The notes beneath the pieces were generated by a model. The model saw only the letters and a program-made list of their open reading frames with translations, did no database searches and was not told the DNA's origin. Shown here piece by piece: positions 1,063-46,876 of a DNA stretch of 64,000 nt (the first letter of the stretch is position 1; the number at the start of each line of letters is the position of its first letter). Both the position numbers and the translations under genes were made by a program. Source of the stretch: Candidatus Heimdallarchaeum endolithica (lineage in GTDB: Archaea; Asgardarchaeota; Heimdallarchaeia; Heimdallarchaeales; Heimdallarchaeaceae); contig CP084167.1 of NCBI GenBank assembly GCA_021513715.1, forward strand, positions 192,001 through 256,000, read 5' to 3'.

Positions 1063-1583
1063 TAAGCTCCGAGTTATATGGAAAAATATAAAGGTATCTT
1101 TATAAAAAACGATTAATATTAATCAAAAAACTTTGAATTCTTTTCAAACTCCTTTAAAACCCATATTCCTTCTCATAGAATAAAATAAAATATGAGAATG
1201 ACTGCAGAAACACCTAACAAGCAAAAACCTAATATTAAACCTACTATTCTATTCTTTAAGTGCCTTTTTATTAAATCCCCAATGAACCCTCCAATAGGTA
1301 AAAAAATTGATAACACAATAAACAAATACAAATCAAAATGACCTTGTACTACGTGAGTTGTACCTCCTACAACAGCTTTAACTAAAATAATAAAAAGAGA
1401 AGTACCAGAAGCTACAATAGGAGTATATCCAAAACCTAATATCATCAATGGAGAAATAAGCCATCCTCCAGAAGAACCAAGAAGGCCAGTAATAAAACCA
1501 ATTAATAATCCAAAAACTACAATAACGGGAATACTTATTCTAAACTCATAGTCATCCCTTTTTATAGTTATAAAAGGTTTCAA

Positions 1584-1968
1584 CCATGAGTTGAAATTTT
1601 ACGTAATTTCTTCAGGACTCTACCCAACCAATCAACAAACTTAGCGAAAGTTGTGAAGACTGGATTAAGAGAACATGAAAGACACAGTCTTAATTAAGTT
1701 CTCTAAGGGGTTCATCTCCTTATCCCGGGCACTCATAACTCCCAAAGGGAAGACCGGGTGTCGTAGGAATGAAACCTACGTCTTTAAGCATATAGCTCAA
1801 GACACTAGATAAATGAGAATTAAATATATAAAGATAGCTGAAAAGTTGTGACACTCCCTAATATCTTGTATGTATTCTTTATTTTTGCAAATGTGTTTCA
1901 GGTTGTTATTGGTATGATAACTCCACAAACTAAAAATTTAGTTTATTATGTAAAAAAGTATCTCATGG
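1584..1968. mobile_element. Non-autonomous MITE-like insertion with imperfect terminal inverted repeats, no target duplication and an internal structured RNA-like segment
   Basis: Ends CCATGAGttgaaattttacgtaat and (reverse complement) CCATGAGatacttttttacataat match 18/24; precise removal restores the host reading frame; no credible protein inside. Confidence 0.85.
1610..1803 (-). ncRNA. Putative structured ncRNA inside the 1584-1968 element
   Basis: Minus-strand TTTATATA (1825-1832) lies about 22 nt upstream of consecutive stem-loops: GTCTTGAGC/GCTT-A-AAGAC, GTAGG/CCTAC, CCCGG/CCGGG enclosing TCCC/GGGA, TAAGGAG/CCCCTTA, AGAGAAC/GTTCTCT enclosing AAGAC/GTCTT, AACTT/AAGTT. GC-richer than the genome; 3' end approximate. 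Confidence 0.6.
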
Positions 1969-2534
1969 ATAATGAAACCTTGCAAAAAAAGCTATCTTAT
2001 GTCTATGCTCTTCTTGTTCTTTTCTTACTTGTTTCAATTCGTGAATTTTATCTCTTCTATATGTTTCGATACCTAGTTTCTTCTTTTTTCTTGATTCAAA
2101 TAACATTTTAACGCTTAGTAATAGAGCTAATGAGAACAATATTGAAAGTAAAACTACTTCAGGTATCATATCTGTAATTAAAGCTCCCAAAAAAGTAGAA
2201 ATCATAGCAGGAATTAAAAAAGCAAAGGCAAATTTAAAATCAATTTCCTTCCTTTTTCTTGCTCCAAGCACACCAACCAGAGAAATAAAAACTGTAGAAG
2301 ATAAAGTTGTTCCTACAACAGTAGGCATTTCATATTCAAATAATACTGCTAAGATAGGAACAATGAATACTCCCCCACCAAGTCCAGCTATTACGCTTAA
2401 TATGCCAACAACAAGTGCAATTATCGAAATCAAGAATAGTATAGTGGGAGACAATAGCATAACTCTTGATGATAAAAACATATTTATAAAACTTTTTCGA
2501 ATTAAAAACCTAAAAGAAGTTAGAAATTAAATTT

Positions 2535-16266: not shown

Positions 16267-16359
16267 TTTAACCACTCAAGAATTCTTTAATTTATAGAGA
16301 GTTTTAAAAAATAAAAAGATTGTGTTTGTTCTAGCATATTTTTTCCTAATTAGTTAAAA

Positions 16360-17363
16360 AAGCATGTCCAAAAATTAATTTTTATTAATGTGGGGGTTTA
16401 TGTCGGAATTATGACTTACTTTCAGATCATAGACCCCCACAAAGTAAGAGAATTCATAATCATTAATGAACCTTTCCTTAAGAAACTGGTGAAAGAGGAA
16501 CCGAGAGAAAGTAAGAGAGGGAGAAAAAGAATAGCAGAAAGGTGGGTGATACTGGCTTTAGCAATTATTGCGAGAATAGAAGGAATAGCTTGGAGGAAGT
16601 TAGAGGAAAAGTTGTCTTTATGCGCTTTTTTGATAGAAGAGGGGTGGATGAAGAAGATTCCTTCCAAATCTACTTTTCATGCAGTGTGGAGAGCGACAGA
16701 AAGTAAGTTGCTGGAGCGGTGGATAATAGATTTAGGTAGGGAAATAGTGAGGAAAAAAGGCTTGAAATCTATGGCAGTGGACAGTTCAGGTTTTAAAATT
16801 CGTCAGGCTTCTGTTTGGCGTTTTCTCAAGTGGGCAAGAGGAGGACTAAAGAAAACCTCTAAACTTTTCTGGAAGATACACCTTATAGTTGGTTTACCCT
16901 CTCGAGCTATAGTCTCTTTAGCTCATTCTGCTAGTAACACTCACGATAGTAAAGTCTTCGGTTTGCTCTGGCAGAAACTTCCTTCTGCACTCTTGAGACC
17001 TTTCTTGCGATTTTATGGAGACTGTGCCTACTGGACAGAAAATATCGTGGGACTTCTAAAACAACATTCTTTCTTCCCCGTCATTCCTCCAAAAAGTAAT
17101 GCTCGTTATCCCTCTCCTCCTCCCCTCGGACCAATAATTCAAGCTCATCGTCTCTACCCTGGTCTGTATCGCCATAATCATCATCCCGAGTATCGTAGTA
17201 GTATTGAACACGTCTTTGGTCTCCTCAAACTCTCTCTTCCCCCAATCCTTGATCGTTTACCCTCCACCATCCTCTCTACCTTGTACAGTTCTCTCTTCTG
17301 TTACAACTACCTTTTACTCCTTCGGACCGTTTAGTTGGTGAAAAAGAATTTTTGGACATGCTT
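16360..17363 (+). mobile_element. Insertion sequence copy 1 (1004 bp; DDE_Tnp_1 clan, IS5/IS982-like)
   Basis: 17-bp TIR AAGCATGTCCAAAAATT/AATTTTTGGACATGCTT; 6-bp target duplication TTAAAA (16354-59, 17364-69). Confidence 0.95.
16390..17334 (+). CDS. DDE transposase (likely start ATG 16411)
   Basis: AVDSSG, KIHL, HDS, GDCAY, YRSSIEHVFGLLK catalytic motifs. Confidence 0.92.
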   Translation: MGVYVGIMTYFQIIDPHKVREFIIINEPFLKKLVKEEPRESKRGRKRIAERWVILALAIIARIEGIAWRKLEEKLSLCAFLIEEGWMKKIPSKSTFHAVWRATESKLLERWIIDLGREIVRKKGLKSMAVDSSGFKIRQASVWRFLKWARGGLKKTSKLFWKIHLIVGLPSRAIVSLAHSASNTHDSKVFGLLWQKLPSALLRPFLRFYGDCAYWTENIVGLLKQHSFFPVIPPKSNARYPSPPPLGPIIQAHRLYPGLYRHNHHPEYRSSIEHVFGLLKLSLPPILDRLPSTILSTLYSSLFCYNYLLLLRTV

Positions 17364-17625
17364 TTAAAAAAAAACATTTGAGAACGACTATAATTTAAGA
17401 ATAGCAAATTACTATTAAAATTGTTTTAAATATTTTTATATTTAATAGTTCTCTTTATTAAAGAAAGACGGGGTTTTATTATATATCTCTTTTTTCTACT
17501 ATTAGAAGTTTTTATTACTATAATAAATAAAAAGAGGAAAAAAGTTGTAAAAATTTCTCAATTTTTTATAACTTTCTGAGATAAAAATAATGCTTAAAAA
17601 TAGAGGGGATATTTAACCTATAATT

Positions 17626-27975: not shown

Positions 27976-28979
27976 AAGCATGTCCAAAAATTAATTTTTA
28001 TTAATGTGGGGGTTTATGTCGGAAGTATGAATTTCTTTCAGATCATAGACCCCCACAAAGCAAGAGAATTCATAATCATTAATGAACCTTTCCTTAAGAA
28101 ACTGGTGAAAGAGGAACCGAGAGAAAGCAAGAGAGGGAGAAAGAGAATAGCAGAAAGATGGGTGATACTGGCTTTAGCAATCATTGCTAGAATAGAAGGG
28201 ATAGCTTGGAGGAAGTTAGAGGAAAAGTTGTCTTTATGCGATTTTTTGATAGAAGAGGGGTGGATGAAGAAGATTCCTTCTAAATCTACTTTTCATGCAG
28301 TGTGGAGAGCGACAGAAAGTAAAATCTTAGAGCAGTGGATAATAGATTTAGGTAGGGAAATAGTGAGGAAAAAAGGCTTGAAAGCTATGGCAGTGGATAG
28401 TTCAGGGTTTAAAATCCGTCAAGCTTCTGTTTGGCGTTTTCTCAAATGGTCAAGAGGGACACTAAAGAAAACCTCTAAACTTTTCTGGAAGATACACCTT
28501 ATAGTTGGTTTACCCTCTCGAGCTATAGTCTCTCTCGCTCATTCTGCTAGTAACACTCACGATAGTAAAGTCTTCGGTTTACTCTGGCAGAAACTTCCTT
28601 CTGCACTCTTGAGACCTTTCTTGCGATTTTATGGAGACTGTGCCTACTGGACAGAAAATATCGTTGGACTTCTTAGCCAACATTCCTTTTTCCCTGTTAT
28701 TCCCCCAAAAAGTAATGCTCGTTATCCCTCTCCTCCTCCCCTCGGACCAATAGTTCAAGCTCATCGTCTCTACCCTGGTCTGTATCGTCGTAATCATCAT
28801 CCCGAGTATCGTAGTAGTATTGAACACGTCTTTGGTCTCCTTAAACTCTCTCTTCCCCCAATCCTTGATCGTTTACCCTCCACCATCCTCTCTACCTTGT
28901 ACAGTTCTCTTCTCTGTTACAACTACCTTTTACTCCTTCGGACCGTTTAGTTGGTGAAAAAGAATTTTTGGACATGCTT
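27976..28979 (+). mobile_element. Insertion sequence copy 2 (1004 bp, same family as 16360-17363)
   Basis: Same 17-bp TIRs; 6-bp target duplication ATACTA (27970-75, 28980-85). Confidence 0.95.
28006..28950 (+). CDS. DDE transposase (likely start ATG 28027)
   Basis: Same motifs as copy 1; about 14 amino-acid differences over 314 by manual count. Confidence 0.92.
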   Translation: MGVYVGSMNFFQIIDPHKAREFIIINEPFLKKLVKEEPRESKRGRKRIAERWVILALAIIARIEGIAWRKLEEKLSLCDFLIEEGWMKKIPSKSTFHAVWRATESKILEQWIIDLGREIVRKKGLKAMAVDSSGFKIRQASVWRFLKWSRGTLKKTSKLFWKIHLIVGLPSRAIVSLAHSASNTHDSKVFGLLWQKLPSALLRPFLRFYGDCAYWTENIVGLLSQHSFFPVIPPKSNARYPSPPPLGPIVQAHRLYPGLYRRNHHPEYRSSIEHVFGLLKLSLPPILDRLPSTILSTLYSSLLCYNYLLLLRTV

Positions 28980-46534: not shown

Positions 46535-46876
46535 CATGAAGTGCTCTTTTGTACATTTTTGTTATACTAAAAACTAGGTGTTTAAATAGTGAAAAGACAT
46601 TAATAAATTAGAGAGGAAAGGAAAAGAGGAATACCAACTCTCTATTAGCCGGCACGGCGTGTCGGGGTAAAAAAACATGCGCATGAAGGCAGAATCAACG
46701 AATAGTTGAATATAATTTAACTTTCCCGTGTGAGCGGATGATTTTTTCATCCAGTTTCCACGGTGGAGGAGTTCTCAACCTTCTCCTCTGGCTCAATGAG
46801 TGTTTAGTTCTTTCTCTCGAATGAACTAACAGGAGAGTAAGATTTGTGCAAAAAATGTACAAAAATCGAGTTGATG
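46535..46876. mobile_element. Second non-autonomous insertion with inverted ends and internal structured RNA-like segment
   Basis: Left CATGAAGTGCTCTTTTGTACATTTTT vs right (reverse complement) CATCAACTCGATTTTTGTACATTTTT, including a perfect 14-bp TTTTGTACATTTTT; left end resembles the 1968 end of element 1; exact boundary uncertain by a few nt. Confidence 0.78.
46609..46840 (+). ncRNA. Putative structured ncRNA inside the second element
   Basis: TTTAAATA (46581-88) about 21 nt upstream of consecutive stems: TAGAGAG/CTCTCTA, CCGGCAC/GTGTCGG, TCAAC/GTTGA, CCGTG/CACGG enclosing GGATGA/TCATCC, GGAGGAG/CTCCTCT, TTAGTTC/GAACTAA. Confidence 0.6.

Follow-up and report, generated by a model that had tools for sequence, protein, structure and literature searches.

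A TauE/TSUP gene of Candidatus Heimdallarchaeum endolithica is interrupted by a protein-free MITE whose internal RNA, by sequence comparison, is homologous to the omega RNAs linked to tnpB. The MITE has spread to NC-AT-N sites, with AT on both sides of the insertions. It probably descends from a tnpB element that lost the gene and kept the ends, TATA box, and omega-RNA scaffold, and it is probably retained by way of its guide and moved in trans. Here, we report its structure, copies, and landing sites, starting from a window of 64,000 nucleotides (contig CP084167.1, positions 192,001 to 256,000) of a 3.33-Mb genome in a single contig; the sister species in the genus is Ca. Heimdallarchaeum aukensis PM71. 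The original prediction took the insert for a candidate RNA-guided element with an internal copy of its target; the insert is not a new bridge-RNA system.

Both halves of the interrupted gene matched PF01925 in a profile search (5′ half, 1967 to 2481, E value of 2e-25; 3′ half, 1173 to 1585, E value of 3e-18; both on the minus strand), and the insert between them is free of open reading frames, as had been predicted. The orthologous gene of H. aukensis is uninterrupted (intact, 310-aa type), with two extra codons and YPW at the junction. This YPW is obtained only if 379 bp are excised and one AT is retained, so that the element is 379 bp long and leaves one AT behind (1586 to 1966 with the duplicated AT core; minus strand, left end to right end), which replaces an earlier estimate of 385 bp. 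Removal of 385 bp does keep the frame, as claimed, but only since 385 and 379 are equal modulo 3. The core lies at 1965 to 1966 at the left-end junction and at 1586 to 1587 at the right-end junction, where it forms the last bases of the RNA scaffold. Imperfect inverted ends, given earlier as CCATGAG...CTCATGG, are present, but their terminal CC and GG are host sequence. The left end (1945 to 1964, minus strand) has a T-tract motif about 7 to 9 nt inside the core, and the right end (1588 to 1607, minus strand) overlaps the 3′ end of the RNA scaffold. On the minus strand, the order is left end, AT-rich spacer (1833 to 1944; poorly conserved between copies), TATA box/promoter, RNA of about 220 nt, and right end at 1586. 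A palindromic target was considered and rejected: the 9-bp arms (1574 to 1582 and 1973 to 1981) belong to the host, the empty orthologue has a different sequence in one of them, and the landing sites have nothing in common beyond NC-AT-R.

In this genome, the element occurs as 19 long copies whose ends are the same (one without the right-end part; 18 to 19 by count) and as six fragments; H. aukensis has 12 matches to the MITE, and metagenomes have nine loci. A search for a parent element by DNA similarity in this genome, H. aukensis, and the metagenomes returned only further MITE copies. The insertion had been thought to lack a target duplication; the empty site is 379 bp shorter and has a single AT, and filled sites have AT on both sides. 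Six further empty sites also show a single AT where the filled sites have two (a seventh that was compared is more diverged and is not among them), and AT stood at both junctions in 41/41 tallied insertions from six families. In two truncated copies, the break falls precisely on an internal AT. Spacer identity between copies was 53 to 90% (33% in one with a deletion) and that of the RNA region was 83 to 98%, with the RNA region better conserved than the spacer in each copy compared. Abundant dispersed repeats and 11 transposase/integrase families were noted previously in this genome (PMC8813620); the passages of that paper on repeats and transposases contain no description of the 379-bp element.

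The TATA box and the consecutive stem-loops of the original prediction were both recovered. The archaeal TATA box (1825 to 1832, minus strand) lies 20 nt upstream of the first hairpin, giving a predicted start near 1804, and the hairpin run spans 1586 to 1804 (z, −2.0 on the minus strand and −2.9 on the plus strand). This run, of about 220 nt on the minus strand, was identified as a TnpB omega-RNA (reRNA) scaffold by alignment and by comparing a sequence model of the MITE with tnpB 3′ regions. Built from MITE copies alone, the model matched the 3′ region of tnpB elements in other Heimdallarchaeaceae (E values of 4e-7 to 7e-3) and no other kind of locus, one MITE fragment excepted; the RNAs of the TnpB families resident in this genome were unmatched. 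The homology spans from hairpin 1 (1780 to 1804), which derives from the last tnpB codons (SQWL in the parents), to the same terminal hexamer. Between them lie hairpin 2 (1763 to 1779), stem 3 with its inner hairpin and a 3′ bulge (1724 to 1758), and a region (1614 to 1718) in which two conserved motifs (1708 to 1718 and 1614 to 1625), common to tnpB-linked RNAs, flank hairpins 4 (1668 to 1704) and 5 (1628 to 1663), all on the minus strand. A sister genus has 353-bp deletion derivatives comprising the left end, TATA box, 20 nt, and first hairpin, spaced as in our insert, and in their tnpB parent the distance from TATA box to ATG equals that from TATA box to hairpin in these MITEs. Covariation among the MITE copies alone was weak (4 pairs, 9/500 shuffles; covariation score, 84/500).

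RNAalifold pairs the bulge of stem 3 (1731 to 1736) with the six terminal bases (1586 to 1591). Bulge and end are near-invariant within the MITE family and show compensatory changes across families (bulge/end, ATGAGT/ACTCAT, ATAAGT/ACTTAT, and ATGATT/AATCAT; in a second, canonical clade, TCAAC/GTTGA versus TCGAC/GTCGA). For the 5 bases that precede the final T, the complement was found in 10/11 of the families' own RNAs versus 40/100 cross-family comparisons. This predicted pairing corresponds to the pseudoknot described for TnpB omega RNAs, which involves the terminal scaffold bases (PMC10711439; 10.1101/2023.11.20.567912). The ATGAGT bulge had been noticed earlier as a match to the element's own end, and this relation stands, but instead of serving as a donor-binding loop, the bulge pairs with the RNA's own 3′ terminus. 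In H. aukensis, a canonical-clade TnpB element (L050/L016, 2602597 to 2604400) sits inside a MITE copy, exactly at the AT of the pseudoknot bulge.

The identity on which the original prediction rested, between 1768 to 1777 in hairpin 2 and the host flank at 1971 to 1980, is exact, and the 2-bp core, subterminal inverted repeats, and non-coding RNA give a superficial fit to IS1111. The 10-mer is nevertheless near-invariant between copies whose flanks are unrelated, and this missing covariation already refutes the bridge-RNA reading. The probability that the RNA and 15 nt of one or the other flank share some 10-mer is 0.006 per site, and about 30 sites were examined; over 27 other scored loci, no match of the hairpin to a flank exceeded 6 nt, and one further copy (L029) has a 10-nt flank match to another part of the RNA. 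The match to the landing site is a chance one. Hairpin 2 aligns with a hairpin of the tnpB-linked RNAs and, by that alignment, appears to be an inherited scaffold hairpin and not a target-binding loop; a guide, if the TnpB model holds, would be read instead from the host flank beyond the right end. The IS110 DEDD recombinase gene (PF01548), which might also have served as mobilizer, was absent from both complete, single-contig genomes (0/2; this one and H. aukensis), Rfam gave nothing near the gathering score for the insert RNA, and the RNA is homologous to those linked to tnpB. The MITE shares with IS110/IS1111 a short core, subterminal inverted repeats, and a non-coding RNA but has neither a target-matching loop nor a DEDD recombinase, and its RNA is of TnpB type; we give an IS110/IS1111-like non-autonomous element with an internal bridge RNA almost no credence. 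The broader part of the original prediction, a non-autonomous mobile element with a structured RNA and its own promoter, presumably moved in trans, is borne out.

Longer elements with the same end design, which the original prediction suggested looking for, were found by genome self-comparison, and their sole coding content is TnpB (PF07282, NF040570), with no transposase. The shared end design is AT, about 7 bases, and a T-tract motif, mirrored at the opposite end; related elements end in true inverted repeats, which contain tandem units and lack a hairpin. The AT-core TnpB elements fall into three clades that are about 23 to 30% identical to one another: an Asgard clade with an alternative RuvC-II glutamate, a canonical clade, and a third. 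Homologues of the alternative-glutamate clade in other Heimdallarchaeaceae sit in inverted-end elements, those whose 3′ region the MITE model matched, and this genome holds 14 to 18 copies of its resident alternative-glutamate clade. The cognate tnpB of the MITE is absent from this genome and from H. aukensis. Resident TnpB relatives are 39 to 43% identical to the cognate clade and have the same TCAT end and landing pattern, many with open frames; one resident TnpB lies at G000, 1568854 to 1570314. H. aukensis has 23 TnpB hits and no Y1 gene. A genome of another order (G045) carries about 80 AT-core ends, mostly in omega-RNA MITEs of 340 to 360 bp, together with 31-bp inserts (L291, 3501 to 3531; L293, 3649 to 3679; L294, 1463 to 1493) that contain nothing but two overlapping ends and are flanked by AT at each side. 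More distant TnpB relatives (L075 and L076; Thorarchaeia-like by nearest named hits) are without AT-core ends; their GTGAAC-type motifs look like ones reported with aCas1-linked TnpB.

The landing sites are biased on one side. T stood two bases before the left AT at 1/30 sites versus a background of 37% (p = 2e-5) and at the mirror position at 14/30 sites (p = 2e-4 versus 1/30 at the left), counts that depend partly on family history as the copies are related, each site being a separate insertion. Families ending in TCAT, that of the insert included, land at C-AT and avoid T one base further out; those ending in TGAT land at TC-AT (9/10 here; repeated in relatives), and a family ending in CCAT lands at G-AT (5/5). 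The pattern recurred in a genome from a different order whose ends are TCAT and whose TnpB is unrelated: TC preceded AT at 0/18 sites versus 8/19 at the mirror position. In statistical terms, the motif at the element's own right end is avoided at landing sites. A TnpB TAM would lead one to expect this: in a filled site the element's end stands before the same target, so TAM and end have to be different. The tallies yield a predicted TAM of CCAT for the empty site (1965 to 1968, minus strand; family pattern VCAT, where V is not T), and landing sites alone give three testable TAM predictions (VCAT, TCAT for the 1,487-bp family, and GAT for the 1,516-bp family). From TnpB biology (PMC10711439; 10.1101/2023.11.20.567912), the predicted guide is host tauE read through past the right end (1566 to 1585, minus strand), and the TAM would lie in the host DNA ahead of the left end. 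Searched for as CAT plus a 12-nt match, guides toward other genomic sites were found only at the filled site itself.

We propose that transcription would start near 1804 on the minus strand and read through the right end, each MITE copy thereby making a guide against its own empty site. TnpB would be needed in trans. The cognate clade is missing from this genome; the resident alternative-glutamate clade is the most likely source and would cut the VCAT empty site, whereas a filled site, with TCAT at its right end, would be spared. The insert would then be restored by repair from a filled chromosome copy (homing or retention, after the model in PMC10055086), and a trans-acting enzyme would move the MITE. 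The simplest reading of the landing bias would be that copies at TAM-bearing sites are restored after loss and others are not. The MITE model misses the resident RNAs and the resident proteins are 39 to 43% identical to the cognate clade, so their use of this RNA in trans is conjectural. The RNA could instead be an idle passenger of the same origin, used by no resident TnpB and retained either through descent or because it belongs to the right end, with the landing bias coming from the mobilizer. The missing cognate tnpB in both genomes agrees with such a passenger, as do the habit of MITEs of retaining parental sequence and a bias already seen in very recent copies (97 to 98% identical). We nonetheless think it unlikely: the RNA is better conserved than the spacer and its promoter keeps a fixed spacing, a symmetric mobilizer fails to explain a one-sided avoidance of TC, and families with similar ends show opposite preferences.

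A PATE of IS200/IS605 type (HUH, Y1) would make the likeness of TAM and terminal motif incidental and the shared AT neither core nor duplication. Sequence alone reads equally well as insertion after CAT with an end in TCAT and as an AT core, Y1 DNA-guided targeting typically gives family-specific targets (PMC10055086), and short hairpins are possible in some ends. We regard this as very improbable, however, since the sole Y1 tnpA of this genome has different, canonical hairpin ends and is itself split by a MITE copy, H. aukensis has no Y1 gene and yet 12 MITE matches and 23 TnpB hits, and the ends of related elements are the hairpin-free inverted repeats described above. For the same reasons, Y1 TnpA was rejected as the mobilizer. 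The element with that gene (L043; G000, 923629 to 926979) is a GC-richer canonical IS605 with Y1 tnpA and tnpB, and the MITE interrupts tnpA near its start; removal with one AT kept restores the frame. Standalone omega RNAs and PATE-like, ORF-less IS200/IS605 derivatives, as presented in PMC10691335 and PMC10055086, are like the MITE in being protein-less, with ends plus omega RNA, and in depending on transposase and TnpB in trans. The MITE differs in its inverted ends and repeated AT in place of hairpin ends, in having its own TATA box fused to the first hairpin, and in a host without an intact Y1 transposase.

As to the mobilizer, we favor exchange over a 2-bp AT core, IS607-like, though at somewhat less than even chances; a DDE enzyme with a 2-bp duplication comes after it and is possible rather than probable. 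The 2-bp core, the symmetric predicted joint, and the two copies that break at an internal AT lean toward serine-type exchange, and the true inverted ends lean toward DDE. The IS607 family (IS607, IS1535, ISXfa1, and CboIStron; PMC6188088, PMC10711439, and 10.1101/2023.11.20.567912) has a 2-bp core at both junctions that recurs in the TAM and the RNA scaffold, a pseudoknot with the terminal bases, tandem end motifs, and a single core copy in the empty site, all as in the MITE. Unlike IS607, the core of the MITE is AT and not GG, its terminal inverted repeats are symmetric, and a MerR-type serine TnpA is lacking in both genomes. DDE-associated and solo TnpB (DDE-1 to DDE-6, PMC10691335; partners ISL2, IS630, and IS1031, PMC13565253) and TIR-borne Fanzors also place TnpB and omega RNA between TIRs, with a short duplication included in the TAM and scaffold. 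In contrast, a single end type is common here to at least three unrelated TnpB clades, and genes of IS630, ISL2, IS701, and IS1595 type are absent.

AT-core ends were found on no transposase among the IS481-, IS6-, IS5/IS982-, and ISH3-like elements or those with PF13358, PF13359, PF13546, or PF12762, and on no autonomous element among the ends inspected in two other genomes. Further candidates were set aside: resident DDE elements have other ends and longer duplications, domains of IS630, ISL2, IS701, and IS1595 were found in neither genome, tyrosine integrases number one in this genome and zero in H. aukensis, Cas1 is high-scoring, apparently of CRISPR type, and patchy across the family, and true IS607 occurs in relatives with different ends and not here. 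Canonical IS607 (MerR-type serine TnpA plus a long downstream open reading frame) is present in other genera of the family (L089 to L097). With a MerR-HTH serine TnpA absent, the only serine recombinases in either genome are two host proteins of other architecture that are not beside tnpB. This pair (catalytic domain plus short recombinase-like domain; L040, 1213 to 2046, and L041, 1201 to 1950) is vertically inherited, present in 26/26 Heimdallarchaeaceae, and syntenic, with no mobile context, and a search of 43 further genomes from the class did not find it. It was likewise not found in the genome of another order that holds about 80 AT-core ends, and it therefore cannot be the general mobilizer; that it serves as one for this genus is doubtful. 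Speculatively, the pair may have a housekeeping role, such as chromosome dimer resolution; H. aukensis is without any tyrosine recombinase hit.

The MITE resembles a PATE or standalone omega RNA, with an IS607-like core dinucleotide and TIR ends as in the DDE-TnpB branches, and departs from each family in a defining feature. Standalone omega RNAs and TIR-bounded TnpB were known already; on the AT-core inverted end type, we found no paper in the literature searched. More tentatively, Heimdallarchaeia may have a class of transposons with AT-core inverted ends, no transposase of their own, and possibly a host-encoded mobilizer, which would have repeatedly recruited unrelated TnpB clades with TAMs ending in AT and given rise to promoter-plus-guide MITEs kept in place by resident TnpB. 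If true, an archaeal lineage near the eukaryotes would have an arrangement resembling that of Fanzors. On our main reading, the MITEs are guide-only parasites of a TnpB system that have reached about 20 copies and broken host genes. TnpB has been linked chiefly to IS200/IS605 and IS607, a matter named as an open question (PMC10711439), and an Asgard end type found with several TnpB clades and no known transposase bears on the move of TnpB into TIR transposons, as with Fanzors.

The window and genome carry other small mobile elements. A second MITE family of about 350 bp (window 46536 to 46875, plus strand; seven copies) has AT-core ends, lands at TC-AT, and carries the omega RNA of a canonical 1,487-bp TnpB element. 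Two copies of a 1-kb IS5/IS982-like DDE element, with its own inverted ends and a longer duplication, lie at about 16346 to 17379 and 27976 to 28979 in the window (about 25 in the genome). IS481-like and IS6-like families are also present, as is a 110-bp MITE of an ISH3-like element in about 25 copies (G000, e.g., 1305551 to 1305664).
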